NCBI GenBank assembly: GCA_027729925.1
Contig: JAQCEB010000004.1
Location: 1-60,630 of the forward strand
Length of the DNA: 60,630 nucleotides
Source of the DNA: Actinomycetota bacterium
GTDB lineage: Bacteria; Actinomycetota; Acidimicrobiia; Actinomarinales; Actinomarinaceae
Direction: 5' to 3'
Shown here: piece after piece, positions 601-32,219 of the stretch
How positions within the stretch are numbered: the stretch's first letter is position 1
Layout of the letters: every line of letters starts with the position of its first letter
Position numbers and translations under genes: made by a program
The notes under the pieces: model-generated
What the model saw: the letters and a program-made list of their open reading frames with translations, nothing else
Told to the model about the DNA's origin: nothing
The model's database searches: none

Positions 601-1553
601 TTAAATTCTTTACTTGGTCTTACGCCTAACTCACTTATTACATGTGCTGCACTTTTATTAGCTATATGTACAGAATCCTCCATTGATAAACCTGATTGTA
701 ATCCGTACAAATAACCAGCCGCAAAGAAATCTCCCGCTCCAGTCTTATCAATTACATTTGTTTCCATTGCTGGAAAATAATATTTTTCACCTAATTCAAC
801 TACGACTGCACCTTTTGGCCCAAGTGTGCATATTAATTGATCAACATTAGAAAAGTTATCAACAAAAAAAGTTATTGCATTTTCGATATTGTCTTTTTGT
901 GTTAGGGAAATTAGTTCTTCTTCGTTTGTAAATACGTAGTTTATATTATTCTTAATCAGTTTAATAAAACTTTCTCTATGAGCCTCAACACAAAAAACGT
1001 CTGAGAGTGTTATTGCGTTTTTACCACCACTCTTAGTATTAATTTTTGAAGCATAGAGAAATGCTTCTTTACTGGATGGTTTATCCCAAAGATAACCTTC
1101 CATGTATAACAAATTAGATTTCTTTATAACTTCTTCAGAAATATCTTCTTTAGATAATAATTCTCCTGCACCTAAATATGTGTTCATAGTCCTTTCACCA
1201 TCAGGTGTAACGAAAATGGCACAAAGTCCGGTTTGTTTACTTCCATCTTCAAAAACTGTTAGATCAACTAGGCCAGATTCAGCCAAGCTTTTTTTAAACT
1301 GGATACCTAATTCATCATTAGAAATTTTACCTATGAAACCAGCTTCACCTCCAAGTTGAGCTACCCAATAGGCTGTATTTGCAGCTGAACCACCTGCTTC
1401 AAGGGTAGGTGTTTTCATATTAGCTTGGAGAAAATTAGACCTCTCTTTATCAATTAAAGTCATTCTTGCCTTATTTAATTGGAGTGATTCAATTACTTCA
1501 TCATCAACAAACTGCAATGAGTCAACCATTGCATTACCTATGCAAATTATCAT
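597..1553 (-). CDS. PfkB-family carbohydrate/nucleoside kinase, adenosine kinase-like
   Basis: GGSAAN substrate motif and DKTGAGDFFAAG anion-hole motif, 318 aa. Confidence 0.85.
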   Translation of the reverse strand: MIICIGNAMVDSLQFVDDEVIESLQLNKARMTLIDKERSNFLQANMKTPTLEAGGSAANTAYWVAQLGGEAGFIGKISNDELGIQFKKSLAESGLVDLTVFEDGSKQTGLCAIFVTPDGERTMNTYLGAGELLSKEDISEEVIKKSNLLYMEGYLWDKPSSKEAFLYASKINTKSGGKNAITLSDVFCVEAHRESFIKLIKNNINYVFTNEEELISLTQKDNIENAITFFVDNFSNVDQLICTLGPKGAVVVELGEKYYFPAMETNVIDKTGAGDFFAAGYLYGLQSGLSMEDSVHIANKSAAHVISELGVRPSKEFN

Positions 1554-1903
1554 TAGATTATTTGTCCAGATGAACCTTTGGAGTTAACAATGTTGTCCGT
1601 GACACTTAACAAAGCTTTCATACCACCATCTAAGTTTGAAACTTTAAAATCATTAGAAAGTAGGTAATTTGAAACTCTAGAAGAACGAGCTCCAGAACGA
1701 CAAACTATAATATAATCATTATCTTTAGAAAATTTACTTAAATTTTCTTCGATCGTACCCATTGAAATATGAGTTGCATCTCTGTGATGTCCTGCTTCCC
1801 ATTCATCATCTTCTCTAACATCTATCAACAAATATCCATTAGATATTAGGGTTTCAACTTCACTTGCGTCTACGGATGGAACTTTGTTAAAACCGAATAC
1901 CAC
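1553..1903 (-). CDS. Single-domain rhodanese (sulfurtransferase)
   Basis: LIDVREDDEWEAGH and active-site loop CRSGARS. Confidence 0.9.
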   Translation of the reverse strand: MVFGFNKVPSVDASEVETLISNGYLLIDVREDDEWEAGHHRDATHISMGTIEENLSKFSKDNDYIIVCRSGARSSRVSNYLLSNDFKVSNLDGGMKALLSVTDNIVNSKGSSGQII

Positions 1904-2726
1904 TTTGCCTCTGTTTCAATCTTTTGACTCTTTCTTCTGTTGGTGGATGAGTTGAAAATAGCTTTCCGATACTTTTACCTGAAAAAGATTTTAATGGATC
2001 CGAAATAAAAAGTTGACTAACAGCTGGATTAATATTCATAGGAATTTTTGAAAATTTATCTATTTTTTCTAGAGCAGATGCAAGCGCTAAAGGATTACCA
2101 GAGACTTCAGCACCTGTAGCATCAGCGCCAAATTCTCTAGTTCTAGAGATGGCCATTCTAATAATTATAGAAGCTATTGGAGCAGCAATAAATGCAAGAA
2201 GAGCAAAAGCTGGATGAATATTCCTATCTCTTCTTTCTCCAACACCCCAAAAAGCCATTCTTGACATAAATGATATTGCTGCTGCTAACATTGCTGCAAT
2301 ACTTGACACAAGAATGTCTCTATTTTTTATATGTGATAGTTCATGAGCCAATACTCCTTCAAGTTCATCTCTATTTAGTAGTTTCAAAATGCCAGTTGTA
2401 ACTGCTACTTTAGAATTTTTTGGATTTCTTCCAGTAGCAAATGCATTTGGCTGATCACTATTAATCACATACAATTCTGGCATTGGCATCTTTTCTTTTT
2501 GTGTTAAATAAAAAACTATATCCTTTACTTCTTGAAATTGACCATCCTGAATTTTTACTGCTCTTGTTGATTTTATTGCGAGAGAGCCACTGAAAAAATA
2601 CATAATGAAATTAAATAAAAAAGCAAAAATCAATGAAGAAAATAGATCAAAACCCAATAATGTAGCAGTAAAAAGCACAATCAAAGTTAAGAATGTTAAC
2701 AACATAGTGGTTTTAATAAAATTCAT
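1887..2726 (-). CDS. htpX: Zinc metalloprotease HtpX (M48)
   Basis: PNAFATG, HELSH zinc motif, REFGAD, FSTHPP, with TM segments. Confidence 0.95.
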   Translation of the reverse strand: MNFIKTTMLLTFLTLIVLFTATLLGFDLFSSLIFAFLFNFIMYFFSGSLAIKSTRAVKIQDGQFQEVKDIVFYLTQKEKMPMPELYVINSDQPNAFATGRNPKNSKVAVTTGILKLLNRDELEGVLAHELSHIKNRDILVSSIAAMLAAAISFMSRMAFWGVGERRDRNIHPAFALLAFIAAPIASIIIRMAISRTREFGADATGAEVSGNPLALASALEKIDKFSKIPMNINPAVSQLFISDPLKSFSGKSIGKLFSTHPPTEERVKRLKQRQSGIRF

Positions 2727-2750
2727 AATTCTATTTTAATTACTTTTTAT

Positions 2751-3776
2751 TTATACCTTTTTCGCATTGAGAACATAAAAACCTCCTAAGCCATTTAGAT
2801 TTAAAATAGTTTCTAATCCAAGAATCTTATCTTGAAGTTTTAGTTGCTCCAATCCTTCTGAGGAATTTTTCAAATTTTTTAAAGTTTTTAATAAAGTAAC
2901 TGCACCGCAACTTTCCAAAAATTTTTTTTGAGTGATGATAGAGGCTTTATATCCATATTTTATAAATAAATTTTGCAGTGCTGAAAAATTAATATCATAA
3001 GTTATATCAACTTCACCAAAATTTAATATTGGATCTCCTGCTAGGTGGTGGTTCTTGTATGTTCGTAATAATGACGTGTACTTTTTATTTATTCTCTCTT
3101 TTTGGAAATACCCGTAATCAAAAAACATAAAATTATTAGGTTGGAAATTTTTAATTAGCTTAATTATAAATTCTTGAATATTAGTTTGAACTTCAATTTC
3201 AAATTCTTCGCAACCAGAAATATTGTTAGATGTTAACCATTTTTTATTTTTGTCTCTAATTGAAAGAAGTTCATATCGAAAATTTTCATTTGAAATATCT
3301 ACACCTTTTTCGAACCATTTATTATTTTTATAAATTGCTATTGAACATGGTATGTTATCTAATATTTCATTCCCAAAAATTAAGTCTATTGTTTGATTTT
3401 TCAATTTGGAGGGAGAGTCGACAATTTGAATGCCAAGGTTTTGTAGTTCTTTTCTTGCAGTTGCAGACCTTTCCACAGCTAAAAGTCTACTCTTCTTTTC
3501 ATCAGTGAAATTTTTAATTAATGAACCTGTACCACTACCAAGCTCCAATAATGTACCTCTTATGTTATTTACTTCTATCCAATTTTCTATTAAATTACCA
3601 AAATACTCTGAAACTTCGGGTGAAGTTAAAAAATCTCCTGTTTTTTTTGATCGAGTTTTTTCATTATTGAAAAATCCATATTTAGAATATAATGACTCTT
3701 CCATAAATTGGTCAAAATATAACGATTTAGATTTATATTTTTCTATTAAGTATTTTTTTTTGTCTTTACCAATCAA
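2751..3776 (-). CDS. SAM-dependent methyltransferase, NDUFAF7/MidA family
   Basis: FDQFMEESLY, GDFLTSPEVS, ELGSGTG (SAM motif), NEILDNIP, DYG, DITYDINF. Starts 2 nt after the nuoN stop. Confidence 0.85.
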   Translation of the reverse strand: MIGKDKKKYLIEKYKSKSLYFDQFMEESLYSKYGFFNNEKTRSKKTGDFLTSPEVSEYFGNLIENWIEVNNIRGTLLELGSGTGSLIKNFTDEKKSRLLAVERSATARKELQNLGIQIVDSPSKLKNQTIDLIFGNEILDNIPCSIAIYKNNKWFEKGVDISNENFRYELLSIRDKNKKWLTSNNISGCEEFEIEVQTNIQEFIIKLIKNFQPNNFMFFDYGYFQKERINKKYTSLLRTYKNHHLAGDPILNFGEVDITYDINFSALQNLFIKYGYKASIITQKKFLESCGAVTLLKTLKNLKNSSEGLEQLKLQDKILGLETILNLNGLGGFYVLNAKKV

Positions 3777-3778
3777 AA

Positions 3779-5257
3779 TTAATTATTAAGAAAAGTAGAA
3801 GCTATATCACCTAGATTGCTAAATATTCCTGGAAAAATTCCCGACAATACTGTAATAAAAACTGTTATAAGACCAACAACCTTTATTGGATTTTCAATTA
3901 ACATATTTTTCTCAGAGTATTCTTGAACTTGTTCATCCATCCATATAATCTTTGAAATTCTTGCATAATAAACTAATGAAATTACAGCGTTAACTGCACC
4001 GACAATACCAAGAATGACGCCGATTGTTTGGCCAGAACCCAATAAGCTCCTAAATACAACAAACTTTGCAAACCAACCGCCAAGAGGGGGAACCCCAGCT
4101 AGAGAAAAAAAGAATAAAGTTGTTAATACGCCAATAAATGGTGAAGATTTTGCCACTCCTGACCATTTATATATGTCTTCAGATCCTGTAAATCTAATCA
4201 GAACCTGAACACATAAAAATGCCCCTAAATTCATAAATGCATAAATTATTAAGTAAGTTACACTTGCAAAAATTCCATCTTCATAATTTCCAGTGATACC
4301 TGAAACAGCTATTGGTGAAATAATGAATCCAGCTTGTGCAATTGAAGAGTAAGCTAGCAACCTCACAGGGTTACTTTGTTGAAGAGCAACCAAATTACCT
4401 AGTGTCATGGTCATACCAGCTACTAGAAATAAAATTATTCCCCAACTACTTCCTGAAATGCCGTAAACAGAAGTCATTAATAAAATAAGGGCCACGAATC
4501 CAGCAGCTTTTGAACTTACTGACAAATAAGCAGTAACAGGGAGTGGAGCTCCTTCGTAAGTATCAGGTGCCCATGAATGAAATGGAACAGTTGAAACTTT
4601 AAAACCTAATCCTGAAATTACCAATACTGCGCTTAATAGAACAACTGGAGAATTTTCCAAAGAGCTCGTCAAAATTTGTTTTGAAATCTCGTTAAATAAT
4701 AAATTTCCTGTTAATCCATATAGAAGAGAGAAACCATAAAGAATTAAAGAAGCAGATAGGACTCCAAGTAAAAAGAATTTAATAGCACCTTCATTTGATT
4801 TTCGATCACCTTTTTTCCATCCTGAAAGTAAAAACATTGGAGTTGAAGCTAATTCGATGCCGATAAAAATAGTCAATAAATCTCTGGACGAACAAATAAC
4901 TAAGGCACCGAGTAGAGAACTTAGTAATAAGAAATAGTATTCACCTTGATAGTATTTGTCACTCTCAATAAAATTAATCGACAATAAAAATGTTATGTAG
5001 GTAATAATTATGAACAAACCTTTTAATATGATTGAAAATTTATCAATAACATAACTGTCTTGGAATACGTATATAGCAGATGTGTAGCTTATCCAATGGA
5101 TTAACAAAGGTACTAGTGAAACTAAGGTTCCCAATAATGCAAATGCAGCAATTAGATATTTGGATTTACGTGGTAAAAGTAAATCTAAGAATATAGAAAT
5201 TACTAATGTAGCAATAATTACTAATTCTGTTGAGATTGCATAATAATTTATAGTAAT
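3779..5257 (-). CDS. nuoN: NADH-quinone oxidoreductase subunit N (11-subunit cluster), proposed ATT start
   Basis: FKVSTVPFHSWAPDTYEGAP, RLLAYSSIAQAG. The frame stays open 41 codons upstream of the track's TTG (ITINYYAISTELVII...) to ATT 5257, 6 nt after GGAGG. Confidence 0.9.
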   Translation of the reverse strand: MTINYYAISTELVIIATLVISIFLDLLLPRKSKYLIAAFALLGTLVSLVPLLIHWISYTSAIYVFQDSYVIDKFSIILKGLFIIITYITFLLSINFIESDKYYQGEYYFLLLSSLLGALVICSSRDLLTIFIGIELASTPMFLLSGWKKGDRKSNEGAIKFFLLGVLSASLILYGFSLLYGLTGNLLFNEISKQILTSSLENSPVVLLSAVLVISGLGFKVSTVPFHSWAPDTYEGAPLPVTAYLSVSSKAAGFVALILLMTSVYGISGSSWGIILFLVAGMTMTLGNLVALQQSNPVRLLAYSSIAQAGFIISPIAVSGITGNYEDGIFASVTYLIIYAFMNLGAFLCVQVLIRFTGSEDIYKWSGVAKSSPFIGVLTTLFFFSLAGVPPLGGWFAKFVVFRSLLGSGQTIGVILGIVGAVNAVISLVYYARISKIIWMDEQVQEYSEKNMLIENPIKVVGLITVFITVLSGIFPGIFSNLGDIASTFLNN

Positions 5258-5259
5258 TT

Positions 5260-6828
5260 TTAACCTCCAAAAGCTTTAAAAATTAAATCAACAACAGCAT
5301 CATTTGTAGCACCAAAAATTAACTTAGGAAATATTCCTATTAGAACAGTCAGAATTACTAGAGGAATCCATGCTGCTAATTCGTAATTGTCAGCGTCATG
5401 AAGCTCTTTATCTTTCCACTCGTCTGCAGGTTCACCTAAATTAACTCTCTGTAACATCCAAAGTAGGTACCCTGCTGTTAGTACTGTTCCTATTGCACCA
5501 GCAACCATTGATGACCTAAAGATTACAATATTCAAGCCTTGGAGTGGGTTATAAGCTCCAAGTAATGCCATAAATTCTCCCCAAAAACCTGCGAGTCCTG
5601 GTAAACCTAATGAAGCCATTGCAGTAAAACCAAGCAAGGCACCGGTTTTTGGAAGCAACTTCATATTGCCACCTAGTCGTCCCATATCTCTTGTATGGTA
5701 TGTGTGAGACATAGAGCCGGTTAAGAAAAATAGTAGTCCTGTTATTACTCCATGTGCCACCATTCCAATTATTGCTGCATTTATTCCAACTGATGTTAGT
5801 GAAGCTATTCCAAGCATTACAAAACCCATGTGACCTACAGAAGAAAATGCAATTAATCTTTTCAAATCAGTCTGTGCTAAGCAAGCAAGTGAACCATAAA
5901 TAATCCCTATTGCTGAAAGTATTGCTATTGCAGGAGCCCAAGCTTTTGCTTGCTCTGGAAGAATTGGAATAGCAATTCTTATAAAACCATATGACCCAAG
6001 TTTTAATAATATAGCAGCTAAAAGAACAGAGCCAACTGTAGGTGCAGCTGTATGTGCATCTGGTAACCAAGTATGTAGTGGCCACATTGGAACTTTAACT
6101 GCAAAACCTAAAAACAGAACAGCAAAAACTAGAGTGGCAAATGTTCCTGTAAAAGCACCTGTACTTCCAATTTCAATTAATTCAGGTATGCTAAATGTCT
6201 TATTCCCTCTATAGTACAAACCTAAAAATCCAAGCAACATAAATGCAGATCCAAATAAGGTAAATACAAAAAACTTAATGCTTGCATATAACCTTGTTTC
6301 AATTTCTTTTTTTAACCCAGAGACTGACCTAATAGTTTTATCACCCCAAATACCAATCATGAAATACATTGGCAAAAGAACTATTTCAAAAAATACAAAG
6401 AACAGAATTAAATCCAATGCTACAAAAGTTCCATTCATCCCAGTTTCAAGTACCAGAATCAAAGCAAGAAAACCTTTTGGACTTTTTGGTTCAGGTAAAT
6501 GCTCTAGAGAATATATTATTGCTAAAACTGAAATAAATGTTGAAAGCACCAATAGAGGAAGAGAAATTCCATCAATGCCAATTTCATAATTAGCATTTAT
6601 GCTTTCGATCCAAGTAGCTTTGCTTCCTAATTGAAGTTGTGATGCTTTAGAAAAATCAAACTCAAGTAAAACCAGAATGCTCAAAATAAAAGTTACCACT
6701 GAAGACAGTAAAGCAACTCCTTTTATTACACTTTCGTATGGTTTAGGTATGAATAAAATTAAAAGTGCACTTATAATTGGCAAGAAAACAACCGCACTTA
6801 ATCCCAAACCGTTTGATAATATTTCCAC
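5260..6828 (-). CDS. nuoM: NADH-quinone oxidoreductase subunit M (11-subunit cluster)
   Basis: FEIVLLPMY, AVKVPMWPLHTWLPDAH, KRLIAFSSVGHMG. Confidence 0.95.
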   Translation of the reverse strand: MEILSNGLGLSAVVFLPIISALLILFIPKPYESVIKGVALLSSVVTFILSILVLLEFDFSKASQLQLGSKATWIESINANYEIGIDGISLPLLVLSTFISVLAIIYSLEHLPEPKSPKGFLALILVLETGMNGTFVALDLILFFVFFEIVLLPMYFMIGIWGDKTIRSVSGLKKEIETRLYASIKFFVFTLFGSAFMLLGFLGLYYRGNKTFSIPELIEIGSTGAFTGTFATLVFAVLFLGFAVKVPMWPLHTWLPDAHTAAPTVGSVLLAAILLKLGSYGFIRIAIPILPEQAKAWAPAIAILSAIGIIYGSLACLAQTDLKRLIAFSSVGHMGFVMLGIASLTSVGINAAIIGMVAHGVITGLLFFLTGSMSHTYHTRDMGRLGGNMKLLPKTGALLGFTAMASLGLPGLAGFWGEFMALLGAYNPLQGLNIVIFRSSMVAGAIGTVLTAGYLLWMLQRVNLGEPADEWKDKELHDADNYELAAWIPLVILTVLIGIFPKLIFGATNDAVVDLIFKAFGG

Positions 6829-6837
6829 TTTTTCCTC

Positions 6838-8838
6838 CTAAATAATAAACAGAATTAACAAACTAATTGTTACAACACCAGCTAAAAACAACATTAAATA
6901 TTGTTGGGTTTTGCCTGTTTGTAATAATTTAACTTTTCCACCAAAGCTGTCAGTGCTGGTAGAAGAGGCATTTAAAAACTTATCAATACCTTTTTGATCA
7001 AAATTATTATAGACAATTTGACCAAGAAAAGAAGCAGCTAAACCAAATGAATTAATAATTCGATCTAAAAAATTCGTATTAATTCTATCAACAGCATTTG
7101 CAATTGTTAATTTAGTTGGATTAATTAAATACTTGAAATAGAAATGATCTAAGTAATATTTATTTTCTAGAACAGTCCAAATTGGCTCTACTTTAATTAA
7201 TTTGTCACCTTTATCAGCAGATCCCTGAAGTTGATAAACAAAATAACCTAAACCTATTCCGAGTAAGCCAGCAATTAATCCAGAAAACAGAGCTGTGTAA
7301 TCAAAACTTTCAGGATGATATTCATTAATTTTATTTGCTCTTGTTGTTACCCATGTAGTAAAGCCTGTATACACCCCTGGAATGTTTACCCAACCTGCTC
7401 CAATTGCAAATACTGCAAGAAACATTAATGGGACAGTCATCATTTTATCTGACTCATGTGGATGACCGTGGCCTCTATACTCACCCAAGAATGTTAATGC
7501 TACTGCTCTAGTCATATAGAAAGCCGTAACAAAAGCGCCAATAATTGAGATAACTAAAAAAGTAGTTTCACCTTCATGATTGAGTGATGCTAAAATCTCA
7601 TCTTTTGAAAAGAATCCTGCAAACGGTGGTAAGCCAGCTAGAGCTACTGTCCCAATTATAAAAGTTATAAAGGTTCTAGGCATATATTTTCTTAAACCAC
7701 CCATCTCTAACATACTATTTGTGTGGACAGCATGAATAACTGATCCTGCTCCTAAAAATAAAAGTGCTTTAAAAAAAGCATGAGTCCATAAATGAAAAAG
7801 TGATGCTGTATAAGCTCCAGATCCTATTGCAGCAACCATATAGCCTAACTGACTAACAGTCGAATATGCTAAAACTTTTTTTAAATCATCCTGAACAACT
7901 GCAATAAGTCCAGCTGTTATTAAAGTAATTACTCCAAATAACATAACTATGTCCAACGCTTCATGAGCCATGGCTTCGTAAAAAGGAAACATTCTTGCAA
8001 GTAAATAAACACCTGCTGTTACCATTGTTGCTGCATGCATCAGAGCTGAAACAGGAGTTGGACCTGCCATGGCATCTGGCAACCAAACATGTAATGGAAA
8101 TTGAGCACTTTTACCCATAGCACCAATAAACAATAAAACGCCTGCGACAAACGCAACATTTTTAATATCTTCGTAATCGTGAGTTGATTGATAGAGTATT
8201 TCTGAAATTCTTAATGTCCCAGTATTTAAAGCTAAAATTATGATTCCAATCATTAATCCTATATCAGCTATTTTGTTTGTTATAAAAGCTTTCATTGCAG
8301 CAGATGAGTTGTCTTTAGTCTCCCAATAATGACCTATAAGCAAATATGAACAAACTCCAACTAATTCCCAACCAATAAGAATTTGAATTAATGTAGGTGA
8401 AGATACAAGAACTAACATGCTTCCAGCAAACAAAGTAAGAGAAGTAAAGAAAAACGTATATCTAACTTCACCTTTCATATAATTTGTTGCATAAATAAAT
8501 ACCAAAAGTGCAACAGTGCCAACAACAAAGTACATCATAATTGAAAGTCCATCAACAACCCATCCAAATTCAATATCAAAAGTTCCAATATTGCCAACTA
8601 CAATAAAAAATTCATTTACTATGCCTTCTGTAATGTGTTTATAAAGTAGTGCAGAGCTATAGAAAAAAATTGATCCTATTGTTGCTAAAGCAATTTCTGC
8701 ACCTTTATAAGGTAGTTTTTTTCCAAAGAAAGTAATGATTAAAGCTGAAATAAATGGAAGCACTACTAATATCCAAGCATATTCTGCAAAGACACCGCCA
8801 TCACCATACGAAAGTTTAGATTCAGCTAGAAGGTTCAC
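6838..8838 (-). CDS. nuoL: NADH-quinone oxidoreductase subunit L (11-subunit cluster)
   Basis: GKSAQFPLHVWLPDAMAGPTPVSALMHAATMV, HAFFKALLFL. Confidence 0.95.
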   Translation of the reverse strand: MNLLAESKLSYGDGGVFAEYAWILVVLPFISALIITFFGKKLPYKGAEIALATIGSIFFYSSALLYKHITEGIVNEFFIVVGNIGTFDIEFGWVVDGLSIMMYFVVGTVALLVFIYATNYMKGEVRYTFFFTSLTLFAGSMLVLVSSPTLIQILIGWELVGVCSYLLIGHYWETKDNSSAAMKAFITNKIADIGLMIGIIILALNTGTLRISEILYQSTHDYEDIKNVAFVAGVLLFIGAMGKSAQFPLHVWLPDAMAGPTPVSALMHAATMVTAGVYLLARMFPFYEAMAHEALDIVMLFGVITLITAGLIAVVQDDLKKVLAYSTVSQLGYMVAAIGSGAYTASLFHLWTHAFFKALLFLGAGSVIHAVHTNSMLEMGGLRKYMPRTFITFIIGTVALAGLPPFAGFFSKDEILASLNHEGETTFLVISIIGAFVTAFYMTRAVALTFLGEYRGHGHPHESDKMMTVPLMFLAVFAIGAGWVNIPGVYTGFTTWVTTRANKINEYHPESFDYTALFSGLIAGLLGIGLGYFVYQLQGSADKGDKLIKVEPIWTVLENKYYLDHFYFKYLINPTKLTIANAVDRINTNFLDRIINSFGLAASFLGQIVYNNFDQKGIDKFLNASSTSTDSFGGKVKLLQTGKTQQYLMLFLAGVVTISLLILFII

Positions 8839-8846
8839 TTATTTTC

Positions 8847-9152
8847 CTACCATTTCATTAAATCAAATTCATTAATATTAGCTGTTTGTCTGTTTCTAAA
8901 AAGCATCAAGACTATAGCAAGCCCTATCCCAACTTCAGCAGCTGCAATAGTAATAATGAAAATAGAAAATATCTGTCCACCCATCATTGTGTCTGACAAC
9001 ATAGCATCGAATAAAACAAAATTTATATTTACAGAATTAAGAATCAGTTCGATTGATAAAAGAACCATAACTGCATTTCTTCGAACTAAGATTCCATAAA
9101 TTCCAAGTGAAAAAAGTGCGGCAGCAACAATTAATACAGGTTGAACTATCAT
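8847..9152 (-). CDS. nuoK: NADH-quinone oxidoreductase subunit K (11-subunit cluster)
   Basis: SIELILNSVN, AAAEVGIGLAIV, 101 aa. Confidence 0.95.
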   Translation of the reverse strand: MIVQPVLIVAAALFSLGIYGILVRRNAVMVLLSIELILNSVNINFVLFDAMLSDTMMGGQIFSIFIITIAAAEVGIGLAIVLMLFRNRQTANINEFDLMKW

Positions 9153-9667
9153 ATTTGGTCTTCGTTAATTAGAGCATCGTCTTTTCTGGCAAGTGTTATA
9201 CCTCCTATAAGTGCAGCAAGTAAAACAAACGAAACTATTTCAAATGGAAAAACAAATCTTGTTAATAAAATTTCACCCAACAATTGTGTGGAAGATGCCT
9301 GATCTATTGTAATCTCACCACTAAATCCACTAATTAAAATAAAAGAAAAAAGTAGGAAAATTGCAAAAGCTAATATAGCACCTGCTTTTTTGTTTTTATC
9401 ATTATCTAATTCAGCATTCTTACCAAGTGGAGCTCTCGTTATCATAATTCCGAATAAAAAGAGAACTATTACTGCACCTATGTATACAAGTATTAATACT
9501 AGGGCGACAAACTCAGCAGAAAGTAGTAAGAATAATGTTGCAGTTAGCGCAAGTGTAAATACTAATGAAACTGCGGCGTGAATAACATTTGTTGTGGTTA
9601 CTACTCTTAATGCTGTTGAAAGTAGCAACAGTAGAACAAAATAAGTGACTATTTCATAAATTTCCAT
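9149..9667 (-). CDS. nuoJ: NADH-quinone oxidoreductase subunit J (11-subunit cluster)
   Basis: LVYIGAVIVLFLFGIM, FPFEIVSFVLLAALIG. Confidence 0.93.
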   Translation of the reverse strand: MEIYEIVTYFVLLLLLSTALRVVTTTNVIHAAVSLVFTLALTATLFLLLSAEFVALVLILVYIGAVIVLFLFGIMITRAPLGKNAELDNDKNKKAGAILAFAIFLLFSFILISGFSGEITIDQASSTQLLGEILLTRFVFPFEIVSFVLLAALIGGITLARKDDALINEDQI

Positions 9668-9669
9668 TA

Positions 9670-10155
9670 TTAATTCTCTAGACCTTCTGGTTCAGGAACT
9701 GTTTTTAACCATTCATCGAGCCTTGCTTTATTATGAAGCATATCACCCATATTAAATTCAGAATACTCATATTCGGGTGACCAAAATAAAGCATCGAATG
9801 GACATACTTCAACACAAATTCCACAGTACATACATAATGCATAATCAATATCAAACCTATCAAGCACTGCACGACTTCTTTGTCTTCCACCGGGAGTGGA
9901 AGGTGGCTGTAATTCTTTGTGACCTTCAATGTAGATACACCAATCAGGACATTGTCTAGCGCATAGCATACAACTAGTGCATGCTTCTTGATCTAATGCA
10001 ATCACTCCTCTAGCTCTTGGGGCTACTTTTTCCTTTTCGAATGGATAATTGACATTTGGATTTGAATGAAATGGTGATAATGTTTTAAACATATTTACTA
10101 TCACAATTTTCATGCCAATTATAAAGCCAGGAATTTTTGGTCTAAAGGTTTTCAT
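9670..10155 (-). CDS. nuoI: NADH-quinone oxidoreductase subunit I (11-subunit cluster)
   Basis: Two CxxCxxCxxxCP motifs. Start moved to ATG 10155, which overlaps the nuoH TAA. Confidence 0.93.
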
Positions 10156-11126
10156 TACAACACCACTTTCAATACTGCAGTTATTAGTATATTTAATAAT
10201 GAAGCAGGTATTAAGAATTTCCAAGCAAGGTTTTGCAATTGATCTTCCCTAAATCTAGGAAACGACCACCTAACAGCAACCAATATAAACCCTAATATTA
10301 GAGTTTTTGTAATTAGTGATATTGGTCCGTATATATTGACCCACTCAGTTGGAATGAAAGGTAAGTGATATCCTCCAAGAAACAAAGTAGAAGCTACTGC
10401 ACATAAAACAAACATGCTCATGTATTCTGAAATGTAAAATATTAAAAATCTTATACCTGAATATTCAGTCATAAAACCCATTGTTAGTTCAGATTCACCA
10501 ATTGGCATATCAAATGGAACTCTCATCATTTCTGCTGTAGCTGCAATCATAAAAATTAGAAAAGCAACTATTTGCCCACTAAATGCAAAAGGTACTCCCC
10601 ATTCAATTTGTTTTTCAACAATTCCAACTAGAGACATTGTTTCAGCTTGAATAACGACTCCAACAACAGCCAAAATTAAAGGGAGCTCGTATGCAATTAA
10701 TTGGCCAGCAGCCCTTAACCCTCCCATGAGAGAGTATTTGTTAGCGGATGACCAGCCAGCTGTTAAAACTCCAATAGTTGAGAGTGAGCTAATTGCTAAT
10801 GCAAAAAATACTCCAAGTTCTAAATCAACAACAACCAAAGTTGGGCTTAATGGGACAACGGCAAAAAGAGAAACTGCTGAAACAACTACATACGCTGGTG
10901 CCCATTTAAATACTGGCCTATCGACATCAGTTGGAATAATGTCTTCTTTCTGAACAAATTTAAGAATTTCAGCTAAAGGAAATATAAATCCCCTTAAACC
11001 TACATGTAAAGGACCTGGACGCCTTTGCATCCATGAAGCTCCCTTAACATCCATTATGGTAAAAATTACTGCACCATTTAATGCAGCTAAAGCAACAAAT
11101 CCTACTTTGATTAATACATCTGTCAT
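10155..11126 (-). CDS. nuoH: NADH-quinone oxidoreductase subunit H (11-subunit cluster, divergent motifs)
   Basis: [41 protein letters not shown]. Confidence 0.93.
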
Positions 11127-12316
11127 CTATCAACATCTCCTAATACAAAGTCAAGACTACCCATTATTGCAATCAAATCTGGTAAAAGTGCTCCTTCCAG
11201 CATTACTGGAAGAATTGAAACATTGCTAAAAGAAGCTGTTCTAACTTTTAATCTATAAGGTCCTAATCCCCCTTCGGATACAATGTAATAACCCATCTCA
11301 CCTTTTGGATTTTCTGCTCTTACATAAGTTCTTCCTGCAGGAACTTTTATAACTTTTGGAACTTTTGCCTGTAAAGGACCTGAGGGCATATCATCTATTG
11401 CTTGTAAAACAATTTTTGCTGACTCAACCATTTCTCTAGTTCTTACATCCCAACGATCATAGCAATCACCGTTTTGCCCAATTGGTATTTCAAATTCAAA
11501 TTTTTCATAAGGTAGATAGTCAGTTTGAGTTCTTAGATCTGATTTTACCCCTGAAGCTCTAAGAATTGGACCCGATACACCATATGCTTCTGCTGTTTCT
11601 TTTGAAAGAACGCCTACATTCTTAGTTCTCTTATGAAAAACTTCATTTCCTCCAATTAAATTTTGAAATTTATCAGCTGCTTCTATTACTTTTTCCATAG
11701 CTAACTTAGTATCTCTATAAAAACCAACTGGTAAATCTTGGATATTCTTTTTTGTTGTTGGACCAGAACCAGCAGCAGGTTTAACGCCACCAATTCTATT
11801 GAAGTTTGGATGGAATCTCCCTCCAGTTACAGACTCAATAAGATCTAAGACTCTTTCTCTATCTTCCATTGCATAAAAAATTGGAGTTAATGCGCCAACT
11901 TCTAGCGCGTAAGCACCATTGAATACAAAGTGGGAACAAATCCTTGCCATTTCAGTAAGAATTAATCTAATTTGCTTTGCTCTTTCTGGTGCTTCAATCT
12001 CCATCAGTCTTTCTGTGCCGGCTATAAATGGAATCTCATTAGAAAATCCTGCAACCCAATCAATCCTATTAACTAATGTTGTTATTTGAGGATAAGTTCT
12101 TACTTCGGCAAGCTTTTCATACCCTCTATGCATATACCCCAATACAGGCTCTACGTTGTATACTTTTTCTCCGTCAACTTTTGCAACTAATCTGAGAACT
12201 CCATGAGTAGATGGATGCTGCGGACCAATATTTAAAGTCATATCCTCAGTTTCAATTTCAACTGATACAGAGGCTTCAGAAATACTTTGAAAATTACGAG
12301 GATCTATTGTGTTCAA
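11123..12316 (-). CDS. nuoD: NADH-quinone oxidoreductase subunit D (11-subunit cluster)
   Basis: NIGPQHPSTHGVLRL, GYMHRGYEK, C-terminal GDVDR. No hydrogenase CxxC Ni ligands. Confidence 0.95.
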   Translation of the reverse strand: MNTIDPRNFQSISEASVSVEIETEDMTLNIGPQHPSTHGVLRLVAKVDGEKVYNVEPVLGYMHRGYEKLAEVRTYPQITTLVNRIDWVAGFSNEIPFIAGTERLMEIEAPERAKQIRLILTEMARICSHFVFNGAYALEVGALTPIFYAMEDRERVLDLIESVTGGRFHPNFNRIGGVKPAAGSGPTTKKNIQDLPVGFYRDTKLAMEKVIEAADKFQNLIGGNEVFHKRTKNVGVLSKETAEAYGVSGPILRASGVKSDLRTQTDYLPYEKFEFEIPIGQNGDCYDRWDVRTREMVESAKIVLQAIDDMPSGPLQAKVPKVIKVPAGRTYVRAENPKGEMGYYIVSEGGLGPYRLKVRTASFSNVSILPVMLEGALLPDLIAIMGSLDFVLGDVDR

Positions 12317-12318
12317 AA

Positions 12319-12855
12319 TTAAGAATTCTCCTCATCAAAACCTTCAGGCATGCCTTCTACGTCTACATCTCCAGGCCAAGGTTTAACTTCACGACTTATT
12401 AATTCAAATGATTTAAGCATTGGATTACCTTCGTATCCATCTGGAAGATACAATTTTGTTAGATTAGGATGGCCTTCAAAAGTAATACCAAACATTTCAT
12501 AAGCTTCTCTTTCATGCCAATTAGCTCCAACAAATACATTAACTAGAGTTGAAATTGATGGATTTAGTTTAGAGATAAATGTTGAAATTGTAACTAGATT
12601 TGAACTATTAACACTAGAAAGGCAACTCATGATTTCAAATGAGGGATTAACAACTTCTTTAGGTTTATCTCCCACAGAAACTTCATTATCCCAATCTATT
12701 GCTGAAAGCCATGAGAAAAATTTAAGATCAAATTTATCACGAAGAATTTCATGTGTAGATATCCAATTTTCAACATTTACTTTTATTAAAATAGTCTCAA
12801 ACTCATATGAGACATCATTGAAATCTTCTTTAAGTTGATTTAAAAAATCTTCCAT
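12319..12855 (-). CDS. nuoC: NADH-quinone oxidoreductase subunit C (11-subunit cluster)
   Basis: ANWHEREAYEMFGITFEGHP. Start set at ATG 12855. Confidence 0.92.
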   Translation of the reverse strand: MEDFLNQLKEDFNDVSYEFETILIKVNVENWISTHEILRDKFDLKFFSWLSAIDWDNEVSVGDKPKEVVNPSFEIMSCLSSVNSSNLVTISTFISKLNPSISTLVNVFVGANWHEREAYEMFGITFEGHPNLTKLYLPDGYEGNPMLKSFELISREVKPWPGDVDVEGMPEGFDEENS

Positions 12856-12856
12856 G

Positions 12857-13354
12857 TTATAAAGGTTCAACTTGCTTTTCGACCCACTTAGATTTCATAT
12901 CTTCTCCTTTGATTTTTTTCTGAAGAAGTATGATACCTTCCTGTAATGCCTCAGGTCTTGGAGGGCAACCAGGAACATAAACATCTACTGGAATAAGTTG
13001 ATCTACTCCTTTAGTTACCGAATATGAGTCCCAATAAGGACCACCACTATTTGAACAAGAGCCCATTGAAATTACATACTTAGGTTCAGGCATTTGATCA
13101 TATAATCTTTTCACTGAAGGTGCCATCTTGTCAGTAACAGTTCCGGCAACAATCATTAAATCTGCTTGTCTCGGAGAAGCTGGAAGTGGAATAATTCCAA
13201 GTCTCATAAAGTCATGCCTTGGGCCGCTAACAGCCATTACTTCTATAGCACAACATGCTAAACCAAATTGAAAATACCATAATGAATATGCTCTAGCCCA
13301 GTTAAATATAGATGAGATAGGCTTTGGTAAACCAAACTTGTCAACTACTCCCAC
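12857..13354 (-). CDS. nuoB: NADH-quinone oxidoreductase subunit B (11-subunit cluster)
   Basis: [26 protein letters not shown] (N2 ligands). Confidence 0.95.
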
Positions 13355-13710
13355 TTTAAAACATCCTTCCTAATTGCATAAATTAATCCGATAAGCAATA
13401 TAAAGATAAATATAAACATTTCAATTAATCCAAAATATCCGAGTTTTTCAAGATTAATTGCCCAGGGGAAAATGAATACTGCTTCAACATCAAAAATAAC
13501 AAATAATAGTCCAAAAATATAATACCTGACATAAGTTTGACTCCATCCTGAACCAACTGGATCTACTCCACATTCATATGTAGTAAGTTTTTCTGCGTAC
13601 GGTTTATTCGGTCTTAATACGGACGCAAGTCCAACTAAAAGCATCATAAAAAATAATCCGAACGAGAGTACCGCTCCCACAGTTACATAATTCTGAAAAT
13701 AAGAAATCAT
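13345..13710 (-). CDS. nuoA: NADH-quinone oxidoreductase subunit A (11-subunit cluster)
   Basis: [19 protein letters not shown]. Confidence 0.95.
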
Positions 13711-13716
13711 ACTTTT

Positions 13717-13722
13717 ACTTTA
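13717..13722 (-). promoter_or_regulatory. Putative -10 hexamer TAAAGT for a leaderless nuoA transcript
   Basis: TANNNT exactly 6 nt upstream of ATG 13710, no SD. Confidence 0.45.
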
Positions 13723-13789
13723 GTCCAGCCTCTAAAAAGTTTAGTTTTTTCTAAAACTTCGGAGAAATTATTTGTAAGATTTTTTATAA

Positions 13790-14878
13790 GTGAAAACACA
13801 AAAATTTTTAATTGAACCAAACCTAGTAGATCTGTCTAAAACAGTAATTAACACTGTTTTGGGAAAGAAATTTTACGAACTTCGATTTAATAACTTGTTA
13901 GACGAAAAAATAAACGATGCTGAATCTATTAATTTTATTTTAGCTGATGGTTTAGGTTTCAAAAACTTACAGGAAACTGACAGTTGGCTAAATTCGAATA
14001 TATCTAAAAGCATTTTTACAACCTTCCCATCCTCTACAAATGTAGCATTAAGTTCACTTACATTGGCTAATAATCCTGGGAAGACTGGGATTATAGGTTA
14101 TTTTATGTTCGATAAAAAATACAATCATTTAATCAATGCTCTTGTATGGAATTCTGAAAATACTAATTTAATTAAAAACGAATTTTATAAAAAGCAAAAA
14201 ACAATTTGGAGCACACTAAACGAATCAAAAATTTTCTATAACATTTTTCAACCAAAAAATTTAGTTGGTACAACATTATCCAATTTCATCTATTTTTCTG
14301 AAAAAGTAACAGGTTATCTAGACAATAAAGAATTAATTGAATTAATGTCAGATTCACTATTTTTAGAAAATAGATTTAATTTTATTTATTATCCAAAAAT
14401 TGATGTAGCAGCTCATTTGTATGGTGTAGGTAGTAAAGAGTGGTCAAGAGAAATATTTGAATTTGAAAAATTGATAAATATTTTAAATACTTCAACAAAT
14501 AAAAAATCTTATACGGTTGTAACATCTGATCACGGTTTGGTAAATATTACTAAAAATAATAAATTTGAAATTCAGTACTCTGAAGATATAAAAATTTATG
14601 GGGATCAAAGATCTGTTTTTATAAATGGAGAAAAAAATAAAATTAATAGAGCATTCAAAAATGTACCCGGAGAATTAATAAATAAAGCAGAGTTGAAAGA
14701 ATATTTTGAAATATCTGAAGATAATTTTATAGAGAGAATATTTCCTGATTTTTGTTTTCTCCTGAAAGATTCATCAATTGTTATTCCAAAACACTTGAAA
14801 GCTCCATTAATTGGGTACCATGGTGGATTGTCTGATTCAGAAATATTAATACCGATTATTGAAATATCCAATTATTAG
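13790..14878 (+). CDS. Alkaline phosphatase superfamily protein (nucleotide pyrophosphatase/phosphodiesterase type)
   Basis: ADGLG, TTFPSSTNVA, DVAAH, TSDHG, GYHGG metal and nucleophile motifs. Confidence 0.85.
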   Translation: MKTQKFLIEPNLVDLSKTVINTVLGKKFYELRFNNLLDEKINDAESINFILADGLGFKNLQETDSWLNSNISKSIFTTFPSSTNVALSSLTLANNPGKTGIIGYFMFDKKYNHLINALVWNSENTNLIKNEFYKKQKTIWSTLNESKIFYNIFQPKNLVGTTLSNFIYFSEKVTGYLDNKELIELMSDSLFLENRFNFIYYPKIDVAAHLYGVGSKEWSREIFEFEKLINILNTSTNKKSYTVVTSDHGLVNITKNNKFEIQYSEDIKIYGDQRSVFINGEKNKINRAFKNVPGELINKAELKEYFEISEDNFIERIFPDFCFLLKDSSIVIPKHLKAPLIGYHGGLSDSEILIPIIEISNY

Positions 14879-14903
14879 TTCCTTGGATATGCAAAAATTG
14901 AGT

Positions 14904-15695
14904 ATGAAAAAATTATCACTAGGTATATTTATTATTTTCCTAATAAGTTGTAGTAATGCAAATGAAAATTCAGTCCAGTATGAAGAACCATTTTTTGGCG
15001 GTGCAACTGCTGATATGGTACAAGAATCAAAAGCTATAAGTTCAGAATACAATCTTTCGCAGGGTGATTATATTATAAAAACAGGTTATGCAAGTACGGA
15101 TGTATCTACTAATAAATTTCAATCAGTAATAAACGACGTTGAAGGTTTAGTTAAGTTTTATGATGGTTACATTTCCAATACTTATTTATCAACAAATTAT
15201 CAAGGACTAAAAAGCTACAGTATAACAAGCAACATCCCATCAGATAATTTTGATAATTTTATAAATGATATTGAAAGTATTTCTGAATTTACAAATATTA
15301 ATTTAAATGCTAATGATGTCACTACATACGTATTAGATATTGATTCAAGATTAAATTCTCTTTATGAAGAAAAATATGCTTTAGAAAGTATTCGAGAAGA
15401 AGCAACAACAACTGCTGATAAGCTTCAGGTTCAATCACAATTACGATATATCAATCAAGATATAGAGATGTTGGAGGCTCAAAAGGAATATTACGAGAAA
15501 GCAACATCTTACTCCAGTCTGTCATTAGAAATAAGAGAAGGTTCTGGAGTTTCTTTATTTTCTTGGAATTATTATGTACAGAGAGCACTTTCATGGGTTG
15601 AAGAAATAATTGGAATTACAGTTTCGGTCTCAATCATATTAATTCCATTATTAACTCTATTCATAATTTTCAAGAAAATTAGATCAAAAAAATAG
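14904..15695 (+). CDS. DUF4349-like lipoprotein with C-terminal membrane helix
   Basis: MKKLSLGIFIIFLISC lipobox, IIKTG, DVTTYVLDIDSRL, coiled coil, YSSLSLEI, C-terminal TM plus KKIRSKK. Confidence 0.7.
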   Translation: MKKLSLGIFIIFLISCSNANENSVQYEEPFFGGATADMVQESKAISSEYNLSQGDYIIKTGYASTDVSTNKFQSVINDVEGLVKFYDGYISNTYLSTNYQGLKSYSITSNIPSDNFDNFINDIESISEFTNINLNANDVTTYVLDIDSRLNSLYEEKYALESIREEATTTADKLQVQSQLRYINQDIEMLEAQKEYYEKATSYSSLSLEIREGSGVSLFSWNYYVQRALSWVEEIIGITVSVSIILIPLLTLFIIFKKIRSKK

Positions 15696-15766
15696 TGGCA
15701 CTGTCCTATATAGGGTTAGCTTTAATTATTTTATTAATTATTTTATTTGGCAAAAAAATAAAATAA
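15695..15766 (+). CDS. Putative 23-aa membrane micropeptide MALSYIGLALIILLIILFGKKIK
   Basis: GTG overlaps the upstream TAG (TAGTG). One hydrophobic helix plus basic tail. Fills the gap to 1 nt before the heliorhodopsin stop. Confidence 0.4.
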   Translation: MALSYIGLALIILLIILFGKKIK

Positions 15767-15767
15767 T

Positions 15768-16571
15768 CTAATTAGGTTGGTAGGTCCCGAAAAATACTTG
15801 CCAAGCTAAGCAAGTTTTTGCTAGTAGACTAAGCCAGATATATGCTCTCTCTCCATATAAATAATCACTCCATTTTCCAACTTTTTTATATTGGAGAATC
15901 ATATTTATTGAAAAAGTATTAAAGAATAAAAATATACTAACAAAAATCCATACTACAAACTGTGGTACACCTTGTGGGTTTGAGTCAGTTGCTACACCAT
16001 CTCCAATAAGATTTATAAAAATAAAAATCCAAGGAGCAACTCCAACTAAACAACCCATGATGTAGCTTGTCCAATCTACTTTTTCAGTATATTGATTATG
16101 TACTTCCATCATCCATCCAAACCAACACATTGCAGCATTCATAAAAAATATGCCTGCTAAAGCCCAGATATCATATATTCCTACCAAAAGTGCAATCAAC
16201 ACAATCATCACTGAAGCACTTATTGAATATTCAATCCACCTAACTTTGTTAATACCTTTAGATAAGTCTTCTTTATATTTCGAAAAGAAAGGTCCTGAAA
16301 TTAGATAGTGTGCAACTGCAGAAGCTAATAAAAAAGTTGCAACTGCTGGACCAAAATTTGTAACTTCTCTCCACACTTCAAGTTCTGGTACTAATGCAAA
16401 GCTTGCTGGGTCTGAAGGATTACCTTGGGCTTTAAGCTGTGTCAAAGTTATGGGTACTACAAAATCTGAATTTACTACGGTTCCTAACCAAAACAACGCA
16501 GCACCTTGAATCAGATGGAATGTGCCCATAATTATATTGAATCTTTTTAGTTTTTTTATTTTTTGCTCCAC
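15768..16571 (-). CDS. Heliorhodopsin
   Basis: TFHLIQG and AVAHYL histidines, RWIEYSISAS counterion motif, retinal Lys in LSLLAKT, long loop after helix 1. Confidence 0.93.
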   Translation of the reverse strand: MEQKIKKLKRFNIIMGTFHLIQGAALFWLGTVVNSDFVVPITLTQLKAQGNPSDPASFALVPELEVWREVTNFGPAVATFLLASAVAHYLISGPFFSKYKEDLSKGINKVRWIEYSISASVMIVLIALLVGIYDIWALAGIFFMNAAMCWFGWMMEVHNQYTEKVDWTSYIMGCLVGVAPWIFIFINLIGDGVATDSNPQGVPQFVVWIFVSIFLFFNTFSINMILQYKKVGKWSDYLYGERAYIWLSLLAKTCLAWQVFFGTYQPN

Positions 16572-16623
16572 AAGAATCCTTTTTTTTCCTATTCTTATTT
16601 TAAATTTTATTTACATTAATTAT

Positions 16624-16818
16624 ATGGAAAAAAATCAAATTTACTCTGAAATTGAATCTTTAATGGTTGAACTTGAGGTTTTAATTAAATCATTAGCTAA
16701 TTCAAGAGAGTATATAGCTGAAGAAGACTACCAAAGAGCTCAATTTAAACTTTCCGAAATTGAAATTGAATTACAATCTGTTGCAGGGAGAGTTGCTTTT
16801 ATAAAATCAAATATTTGA
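16624..16818 (+). CDS. Hypothetical 64-aa acidic helical protein
   Basis: ATG 16624 with TACATT 6 nt upstream. Heptad-like amphipathic sequence MEKNQIYSEIESLMVELEVL... Confidence 0.55.
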   Translation: MEKNQIYSEIESLMVELEVLIKSLANSREYIAEEDYQRAQFKLSEIEIELQSVAGRVAFIKSNI

Positions 16819-19390: not shown

Positions 19391-19448
19391 ACAATTTAGA
19401 GTATCTATTAAATAAATTTATTTAAAGATAAAATATTTATGAACAGAT

Positions 19449-25783: not shown

Positions 25784-25915
25784 CTATTCTTTATTTTCTT
25801 TTCTTTGCTTACTTCTTAACCATGTTAGTAGTAAAGCTGGTACAAGGAAATATAGTAATTCGTCCCATCCACCTTGATGCTGAAACGTGGGTGGTGGAAT
25901 ATATTTAATTAACAT
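25784..25915 (-). CDS. Unannotated 43-aa single-pass membrane protein coupled to nuoN
   Basis: MLIKYIPPPTFQHQGGWDELLYFLVPALLLTWLRSKQRKENKE. ATG overlaps the nuoN TAA (TAATG). TM helix plus basic tail. Confidence 0.7.
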   Translation of the reverse strand: MLIKYIPPPTFQHQGGWDELLYFLVPALLLTWLRSKQRKENKE

Positions 25916-30772: not shown

Positions 30773-31081
30773 TTAACCTCTAGATAAATTTAAAACATCA
30801 ACTGATGCTGATGACTGTTTCCTGAAAATTGAAACTATAATTGCTAATCCAACTACAACTTCTGCAGCGGCTACAACAAGTACGAAAAATACAGCAACTT
30901 GACCATCAATAGTTCCAAAATGTTTGGAAGCAGCAATAAAAGTTAAATTTACAGCATTAAGCATTAATTCGATGCACATAAACATAATTAAGGCATTTCT
31001 TCTAATCATCATGCCAAAAAAACCTATTGAAAAAAGTACAGCTGCAAGGCTTAGATACCAATCTGTTGTTACTTCAAACAT
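30773..31081 (-). CDS. nuoK: NADH-quinone oxidoreductase subunit K
   Basis: [21 protein letters not shown]. Start set at ATG 31081. Confidence 0.95.
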
Positions 31082-32216: not shown

Positions 32217-32219
32217 AAT

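Follow-up and report, generated by a model that had tools for sequence, protein, structure and literature searches.

Candidatus Actinomarina (Ca. Actinomarina) carries, in the 60,630-nt contig window analysed here (JAQCEB010000004.1 of assembly GCA_027729925.1), a second set of complex I genes, nuo2, which encodes eleven subunits and lacks nuoE, nuoF and nuoG, next to a complete 14-gene operon, nuo1. The nuo2 cluster is under strong purifying selection and is, judged by its sequence, the orthologue of the Streptomyces nuo2 cluster. Selection, the lack of NuoEFG of its own, relatives in NuoEFG-free genomes and escape from Rex control together favour a distinct electron route that does not start from NADH. 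Our leading reading, which we put forward tentatively and with slightly less than even confidence, is that Nuo2 is a ferredoxin:menaquinone proton pump re-oxidising ferredoxin from the tricarboxylic acid (TCA) cycle.

The paired nuo clusters of Actinomarina are already known from publications of 2020 and 2021. Lopez-Perez et al. described two nuo clusters flanking a heliorhodopsin gene, one of them without EFG, and suggested F420 as donor (PMC7771536), and Bulzu et al. reported a conserved string of Fe3+ ABC transporter, heliorhodopsin, 11-subunit nuo, NDUFAF7, htpX, pspE and adenosine kinase genes (bioRxiv 10.1101/2021.02.01.429150). An earlier note on this DNA, made from the letters, had implied that the arrangement was novel; in this respect it was preceded, since both the pairing and the donor question had been published. 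New here are the recognition of Streptomyces nuo2 as an orthologue, the lack of FpoF, the existence of lineages that possess only nuo2, the sole dependence of the TCA cycle on KorAB, and the restriction of Rex control to nuo1.

The nuo2 cluster consists of eleven consecutive, tightly packed minus-strand genes between positions 3779 and 13710, assigned with Pfam and NCBIfam models and arranged as one operon in the order nuoA-B-C-D-H-I-J-K-L-M-N, at a distance of 12.2 kb from the complete 14-gene operon:

nuoA2, 13345-13710, minus strand, PF00507 (E 1e-35), FDVE motif retained
nuoB2, 12857-13354, minus strand, PF01058 and NF005012 (233 bits, above cut-off), carries cluster N2
nuoC2, 12319-12870, minus strand, PF00329 (E 1e-30)
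nuoD2, 11123-12316, minus strand, PF00346
nuoH2, 10155-11126, minus strand, PF00146 (E 3e-96), ATGA overlap with nuoD2
nuoI2, 9670-10155, minus strand, TIGR01971 and Fer4, two 4Fe-4S motifs
nuoJ2, 9149-9667, minus strand, PF00499
nuoK2, 8847-9152, minus strand, PF00420, both membrane Glu present
nuoL2, 6838-8838, minus strand, NF005141 (617 bits, above cut-off), antiporter-like with a long C-terminal helix region
nuoM2, 5260-6828, minus strand, TIGR01972 (539 bits)
nuoN2, 3779-5257, minus strand, PF00361
nuoA1-N1, 25915-40168, minus strand, 14-gene operon including nuoE (36905-37519), nuoF (35619-36908) and nuoG (33307-35622)

The direct overlap of nuoD2 and nuoH2 implies that nuoEFG are truly absent from the nuo2 operon and were not overlooked, and both the gene order and this absence had been read correctly in the earlier note. 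Its description of the 14-subunit set as highly diverged likewise agrees with our comparison, in which the paralogues share 30-52% protein identity. Given this divergence and the position of NuoD1 and NuoD2 in distant clades, an origin of nuo2 by recent duplication of nuo1 was rejected. Two gene starts deserve mention. For nuoI2 the listed open reading frame (ORF) extends to 10224, and the most likely start is the ATG at 10155, which overlaps the nuoH stop codon. The nuoN2 frame is open back to 5257 and the extended protein aligns with NuoN1; the end of nuoM2 overlaps a GGAGG, six bases 3' of which lies an ATT at 5257. Six Actinomarina sequences, the window among them, share this arrangement, and this ATT, rather than the TTG at 5134, is most likely the start. 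Promoter-like sites in positions 1-17000 of this AT-rich DNA (about 31% guanine plus cytosine in the window) are fewer than in shuffled sequences, so that a promoter and terminator scan is uninformative on transcription units.

All ligands of the iron-sulphur (Fe-S) clusters N2, N6a and N6b as well as the charged pump residues are retained in Nuo2. NuoB2 possesses the four N2 cysteines (motifs CCAIE, GSCS and GCPP) and NuoI2 all eight cysteines in both CxxCxxCxxxCP motifs. In the membrane arm, NuoL2, NuoM2 and NuoN2 keep the Glu of transmembrane helix (TM) 5 and the Lys/Glu of TM7, TM8 and TM12 (Glu, Lys, His, Lys, Lys-Asp in NuoL2; Glu, Lys, Lys, Glu in NuoM2), while both Glu of NuoK2 and the NuoA, NuoH and NuoJ motifs are present. 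The earlier statement that the Fe-S ligands and antiporter motifs look intact hence stands; extended to all functional residues it does not, since NuoD2 differs at the quinone site. In an alignment with Nqo4 of T. thermophilus (whose numbering is used throughout for NuoD), gap-free over these positions, NuoD2 retains His38 and Arg64 and carries Trp in place of Tyr87 and Glu in place of Asp139. The canonical quinone head-group set (His38 and Tyr87, with Asp139) is thereby altered in NuoD2, whereas NuoD1 is canonical. Within a tree of 124 representatives the NuoD forms with Trp87 fall into a single clade far from NuoD1, with 98% support in the Shimodaira-Hasegawa-like approximate likelihood ratio test (SH-aLRT).

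Compared with four other Actinomarina genomes, the ratio of nonsynonymous to synonymous substitution rates (dN/dS) of the nuo2 genes lies between 0.01 and 0.17 and is no higher than that of nuo1, synonymous sites being near saturation in most of these comparisons. In three more distant comparisons NuoL2 and NuoM2 are conserved equally to or more than NuoL1 and NuoM1. Strong purifying selection implies that nuo2 serves a selected function; relaxed dN/dS, sought as evidence to the contrary, was not found, and in this respect the selection assumed in the earlier note is supported. As a side observation on nuo1, the segment nuoK1-nuoN1 (25915-31105) shows a synonymous divergence of only 0.12-0.18 from Actinomarina genome G008 (loci L101-L103), far below the 0.43-0.64 of the remaining parts of both nuo clusters, which suggests a recent recombination tract between populations.

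The family to which nuo2 belongs is large. Marine metagenomes are very rich in NuoD2 homologues of 80-96% identity, those with names being Ca. Actinomarina or Acidimicrobiia, and a scan with the pattern L[AV]NR[HI]DW over one genome per species returned at least 598 relatives. The best 80 relatives are Actinomycetota by title, except for two entries named 'uncultured bacterium' and one metagenome-assembled genome (MAG) of Acidobacteriota, and range from Actinomarina and other Acidimicrobiia to Streptomyces, Actinoplanes, Actinomadura and Aeromicrobium. The signature HRG.EK, NR.DW and the equivalent of Glu139 occupies invariant columns of the family alignment and is present in NuoD2 of the window. 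Across 251 evenly sampled genomes of Actinomycetota the NuoB scores are bimodal, nuo2-type NuoB being about 64-81% identical across the phylum versus about 52-60% for the nuo1 type; NuoB2 itself is 72-74% identical to its counterparts in Actinoplanes and Aeromicrobium. Outside the Actinomycetota, the best-scoring nameable matches of NuoD2 are Chloroflexota and archaeal proteins, and its top NCBIfam model is NF008974, a 366-residue NuoD model. On these sequence grounds, NuoD2 would descend from the non-NADH, EFG-less type.

The link to the poorly characterised second nuo cluster of Streptomyces, drawn in the earlier note, proved correct and is one of orthology. Streptomyces nuo2 (SCO4599-4608) shares Arg64, Trp87 and Glu139 in NuoD2, the htpX gene after nuoN2 and the lack of nuoEFG. 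The gene arrangement differs: in Streptomyces, Actinoplanes, Aeromicrobium and one uncultured Actinomycetota genome the operon reads A2-B2-C2-H2...N2 without D, and a Trp-type nuoD2 lies elsewhere, in the three named genera beside an NDUFAF7-like gene, whereas Actinomarina and other Acidimicrobiia have the eleven genes in one uninterrupted run, in many Acidimicrobiia directly after nuo1 (genes in loci of high G+C content were called with a caller filtered on third codon positions, GC3). The separated nuoD2 had already been noted in the Streptomyces literature, in which the function of nuo2 has been termed unclear (PMC9239103).

An obvious question is whether Nuo2 could borrow NuoEFG from the 14-gene operon. 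Such a hybrid isoenzyme, composed of the eleven Nuo2 subunits and the single NuoEFG, would be a second NADH:menaquinone oxidoreductase, distinguished by its quinone site and its membrane arm, akin to the two-isozyme reading proposed for Syntrophobacter (PMC4453560) and the 'hybrid machinery' proposed for Streptomyces (PMC9239103). In its favour, about 111 of the 251 sampled genomes possess a nuo2-type NuoB, accompanied in every case except one (G258) by NuoF or a second NuoB; the frequent position of nuo2 directly behind nuo1 in Acidimicrobiia points in the same direction. The supply of NuoEFG is limited to one set: tblastn finds single E, F and G genes, and no second nuoEFG, in the 915-kb, 88%-complete source assembly, and NuoF occurs exactly once in each of 13 Actinomarina genomes, among them one in a single contig. 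A second nuoEFG elsewhere in the genome, which could have undone the claim of a separate route, was thus sought and not found.

Several findings speak against such a hybrid. Firstly, nuo2-type NuoB (70-74% identity) is encoded by 17 of the 20 genomes of an uncultured Actinomycetota family, and NuoF by only five of the 20; twelve genomes of this family have nuo2 and neither NuoF nor nuo1-type NuoB, seven of the twelve being at least 90% complete. In one of these nuo2-only genomes (G258) all eleven genes and htpX could be read on a 131-kb contig, with Arg64, Trp87 and Glu139 kept. These genomes imply that the Nuo2 family does not depend on NuoEFG. Secondly, the regulation of both clusters differs, as seen from two further features of the window:

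Rex operator, 40187-40204, TTGTGAA-N4-TTCACAA, a perfect match just upstream of nuoA1
rex, 41514-42269, NF003992 (276 bits, above cut-off), two genes away from the operator

The perfect operator precedes nuoA1 in five Actinomarina genomes (the window and four others), and no Rex site was found upstream of nuoA2. Rex would thus govern nuo1, and with it nuoEFG, while nuo2 appears to escape the NADH-sensing control that sits on the 14-gene operon. Thirdly, NuoD2 is phylogenetically of the EFG-less type, and NuoI2 has an inter-motif loop unlike that of NuoI1: a comparison of 44 nuo2 loci with nuoI1 loops shows a family-specific loop of 37 residues with a conserved GG[RK]xRxR basic cluster, whereas the NuoI1 loop is shorter and acidic. 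By its sequence, the basic loop is a possible docking patch. With all this taken into account we consider the hybrid isoenzyme quite unlikely.

The published proposal for Ca. Actinomarinales, also named among possible donors in the earlier note, is an F420H2:menaquinone oxidoreductase akin to archaeal Fpo/Fqo. F420 synthesis has been reported for Actinomarinales, and the cluster is up to 35% identical to Fpo of M. mazei (PMC7771536); this level of identity is, however, general among all complex I relatives. The F420 input subunit FpoF/FqoF/FrhB (PF04432) is missing from all 13 Actinomarina genomes, including the single-contig one, while the same search was positive in Methanosarcina controls and in other Acidimicrobiia, so that the F420 proposal stands in Actinomarina without its input subunit. 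Moreover, every Fpo model of NCBIfam falls far short of its cut-off (FpoD 327 versus 600, FpoH 231 versus 475, FpoL 378 versus 1050) and scores below the Nuo models. We therefore regard F420H2 as a highly improbable donor in this genus. Other Acidimicrobiia give a more varied picture. Six of eight genomes (G013-G020) encode an FrhB-domain protein of about 370-620 residues, fused to a 4Fe-4S domain in at least G014-G016, and each of the eight has at least one of an FrhB-domain protein and a 2-oxoacid:ferredoxin oxidoreductase; in this small sample G014 and G019 have only the former and G013 and G018 only the latter. Nuo2 donors may differ between lineages.

No electron-donor gene lies in the window, as the earlier note had stated: all other sizeable ORFs that were scanned are transporters or housekeeping genes, or have no Pfam match. 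In the gene inventory of the genus, KorA/POR_N is present in 12 of 13 Actinomarina genomes (TIGR03710, 661 bits, above cut-off), and the E1 component of 2-oxoglutarate dehydrogenase was found in none of nine, as was flavodoxin. The oxidative TCA cycle of Actinomarina must thus reduce ferredoxin. One small acidic ferredoxin of 81 residues (Fer4_15, isoelectric point 4.05) is conserved in the genus, and no FprA-like ferredoxin:NADP reductase was seen in a crude N-terminal GxGxxG scan of the 88%-complete assembly, a weak negative; the scan yielded thioredoxin reductase-like, dihydrolipoamide dehydrogenase-like, SdhA-like and geranylgeranyl reductase proteins.

In line with this inventory, a selected, EFG-less pump together with a KorAB-dependent TCA cycle and the lack of another obvious ferredoxin oxidase makes a ferredoxin:menaquinone oxidoreductase the most economical reading. 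According to this mechanism, a KorAB-type 2-oxoacid:ferredoxin oxidoreductase, replacing the missing 2-oxoglutarate dehydrogenase, would reduce the Fer4_15 ferredoxin, the single small acidic single-cluster ferredoxin of the genome and probably the donor. Reduced ferredoxin would deliver its electrons at the exposed NuoI to an autonomous, proton-pumping enzyme of eleven subunits that resembles complex I and belongs to the Actinomycetota Nuo2 family, in which they would pass via N6a, N6b and N2 to menaquinone while protons would be pumped by NuoL, M, N, H, A, J and K. Nuo2 would in this way close the TCA cycle and conserve the extra energy of low-potential electrons. Donor, acceptor, direction of electron flow and methylation (see below) are the parts of this mechanism that we infer. 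Menaquinones are the only quinones known from Actinomycetota.

A number of observations weigh against this mechanism and keep our confidence in it below even. The reductase scan was crude and the assembly is 88% complete, which weakens the ferredoxin case, and the substrate of the KorAB homologue is a presumed one. Strict co-occurrence of KorAB and nuo2 was considered and rejected, as G014 and G019 carry nuo2 without a POR_N enzyme, both of them with an FrhB-like protein; KorAB is hence not a universal electron source for the family. In the phylum sample nuo2 is rarely found alone, and in Acidimicrobiia it often directly follows nuo1. Finally, with Trp in place of the proton-donating Tyr87 and Glu at position 139, it is uncertain whether Nuo2 performs even ordinary quinone reduction.

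The only other small Fe-S protein, a 2x[4Fe-4S] protein of 148 residues, is unlikely to be a soluble donor, because its gene lies inside a Rieske/cytochrome b/cytochrome c cluster and probably encodes a subunit of that complex. This cluster, found on contig C25 of the source genome (1586-3731) and in locus L113 (3350-8313; contig C1 of G008, about 997-1002 kb), encodes in order a 197-residue membrane protein, the 148-residue ferredoxin-like protein, a cytochrome b6-like protein, a subunit IV-like protein, a Rieske protein and a dihaem cytochrome c. A ferredoxin-like extra subunit within a bc-type operon is unusual, and the presence of the cluster contrasts with the report that complex III is missing in Ca. 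Actinomarinales (PMC7771536).

The altered NuoD2 pocket also bears on two further explanations. In the first, Nuo2 would run mainly in reverse, with the proton-motive force, partly generated by a proton-pumping rhodopsin, driving menaquinol electrons to ferredoxin for reductive reactions such as 2-oxoglutarate synthesis by KorAB, and with Trp87 and Glu139 tuned for quinol oxidation. KorAB-type enzymes can work in both directions, the Tyr that donates a proton is replaced, no other obvious reductant or oxidant of ferredoxin exists in the minimal genome, and a heliorhodopsin gene adjoins nuo2 in all Actinomarina loci (in the window at 15768-16571, minus strand, PF18761, E 9e-90, between both nuo clusters). 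Yet this explanation is purely inferential, the published description of the organism is that of a heterotroph which lives aerobically and runs its TCA cycle oxidatively (PMC7771536), and the same pocket occurs in the non-phototrophic soil bacterium Streptomyces. We deem it very unlikely.

In the second, electrons would enter from an unrecognised partner, either a dehydrogenase docking on NuoI/NuoD or a lineage-specific small subunit, and the acceptor would perhaps not be menaquinone. The unusual Trp87/Glu139 pocket and the nuo2-bearing genomes without POR_N enzymes fit this explanation, as does the fact that no bacterial 11-subunit enzyme outside the cyanobacteria has an established donor (PMC11238625). 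An acceptor other than menaquinone is possible on the grounds of the pocket alone, against which stands the exclusive use of menaquinones known from Actinomycetota. Furthermore, no conserved candidate is found beside nuo2 in Actinomarina, other Acidimicrobiia, Streptomyces or G258, the neighbours being maturation and iron/haem uptake genes; in G258 they comprise a MenJ-like reductase, haem/iron uptake, a PIN-domain gene and htpX, and no donor gene. We consider an unrecognised partner unlikely, albeit less so than the other alternatives to the ferredoxin:menaquinone reading.

Downstream of nuoN2 the co-directional string continues with four genes:

NDUFAF7/MidA-like methyltransferase, 2751-3776, minus strand, PF02636 (93.8 bits), two bases after nuoN2
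htpX, membrane zinc protease, 1887-2726, minus strand, PF01435 and NF002826 (293 bits), co-directional with nuo2
rhodanese-domain protein, 1553-1903, minus strand, PF00581, overlaps htpX and pfkB
PfkB-family (adenosine) kinase, 597-1553, minus strand, PF00294, final gene of the string

Five more loci of Actinomarina (L001 and L003-L006) share this string. The methyltransferase has structural relatives in 4f3n (COG1565) and 5ztz (an NDUFAF7 homologue), and nuoN2 has htpX behind it in Streptomyces, in a MAG of the Nitriliruptoraceae and in G258 (nuo2-only) as well. Together, the NDUFAF7-like gene, htpX and the rhodanese gene probably encode maturation and quality-control factors, a maturation role for the genes downstream of nuo2 having already been suggested by Bulzu et al. 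in 2021 (bioRxiv 10.1101/2021.02.01.429150). In other Actinomycetota that have an orphan nuoD2, an NDUFAF7-like gene lies within 3 kb of the Trp-type nuoD2 in 30 of 35 loci (among L041-L080). Arg64 of NuoD2 aligns with residue 118 of the NDUFS2 precursor, which we take to be the arginine dimethylated by NDUFAF7 in mitochondria, whereas NuoD1 has Thr at this position. Judging from this alignment and the gene pairing, Arg64 of NuoD2 is most likely the residue on which the methyltransferase would act. The pairing makes a strong genomic case for bacterial NDUFAF7 homologues acting on NuoD, and the linkage provides a model in bacteria for the methylation of arginine that is known in complex I of mitochondria.

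On the other side of the cluster, a gene of the type I phosphodiesterase/nucleotide pyrophosphatase family (13790-14878, plus strand) diverges from nuoA2; it keeps its place beside nuoA2 in many other Acidimicrobiia loci (L007-L025) and not in Actinomarina alone. Iron and haem uptake genes recur beside nuo2 across distant lineages, namely AfuABC in Acidimicrobiia (16807-20477 of the window; loci L007, L012, L013 and L021) and FecCD/HtaA in G258 (contig C55, about 21-25 kb). An enzyme with three Fe-S clusters demands much less iron than 14-subunit complex I, which makes a co-regulation by iron conceivable.

Few bacteria of the surface ocean are as abundant and as streamlined as Ca. Actinomarina, and about 1.5% of its genome is spent on Nuo2 including the maturation genes, a share which in a streamlined cell implies that the function of Nuo2 is central to energy conservation. 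Which donor serves the bacterial complex I-like enzymes of eleven subunits outside the cyanobacteria is a long-standing question that is here narrowed for one large family. Orthology with Streptomyces nuo2 makes it answerable in a genetically tractable organism, with ferredoxin from the KorAB-dependent TCA cycle as a concrete, testable candidate. One may go further and view the Nuo2 clade as a mechanistically distinct class, defined by the rebuilt pocket (Trp87, Glu139), a dedicated NDUFAF7-type methyltransferase for Arg64 and a ferredoxin partner, which in Actinomarina would couple the KorAB-dependent TCA cycle to the membrane, perhaps reversibly, with the rhodopsin-derived proton-motive force regenerating ferredoxin for reductive carboxylation; this wider view is speculative and, in our estimation, improbable.

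Compared with known systems, the cluster is closest to the published Ca. Actinomarinales locus, which is the same locus in the same genus without structural difference; only the F420 donor proposal differs. Cyanobacterial and chloroplast NDH-1 has the same eleven core subunits, lacks NuoEFG and receives its donor near NdhI. Among relatives with a solved structure, NdhH ranks second for NuoD2 (309 bits), and ferredoxin is the donor of cyanobacterial NDH-1 as well as the proposed donor of the 11-subunit enzyme of Desulfitobacterium (PMC11238625). Unlike Nuo2, however, NDH-1 retains Tyr87, possesses the extra subunits NdhL-Q, S and V, and reduces plastoquinone where Nuo2 would use menaquinone; Nuo2 subunits score far below the cut-offs of the NCBIfam Ndh models (NdhH 342 versus 583, ndhI 55 versus 302). 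Archaeal Fpo/Fqo likewise comprises eleven homologous subunits without NuoEFG, but needs FpoF/FqoF, which is absent from Actinomarina. The 11-subunit enzymes of Firmicutes and Chloroflexota (Desulfitobacterium hafniense, Bacillus cereus) share the gene order of nuo2, and both NF008974 and the best named matches outside the phylum place NuoD2 with this broad EFG-less group. Most representatives in the Firmicutes/Chloroflexota part of the tree keep Tyr87, though, and their identity to NuoD2 does not exceed 50%; in contrast to these enzymes, Nuo2 of Actinomarina occurs in an aerobic organism that also has a full complex I.

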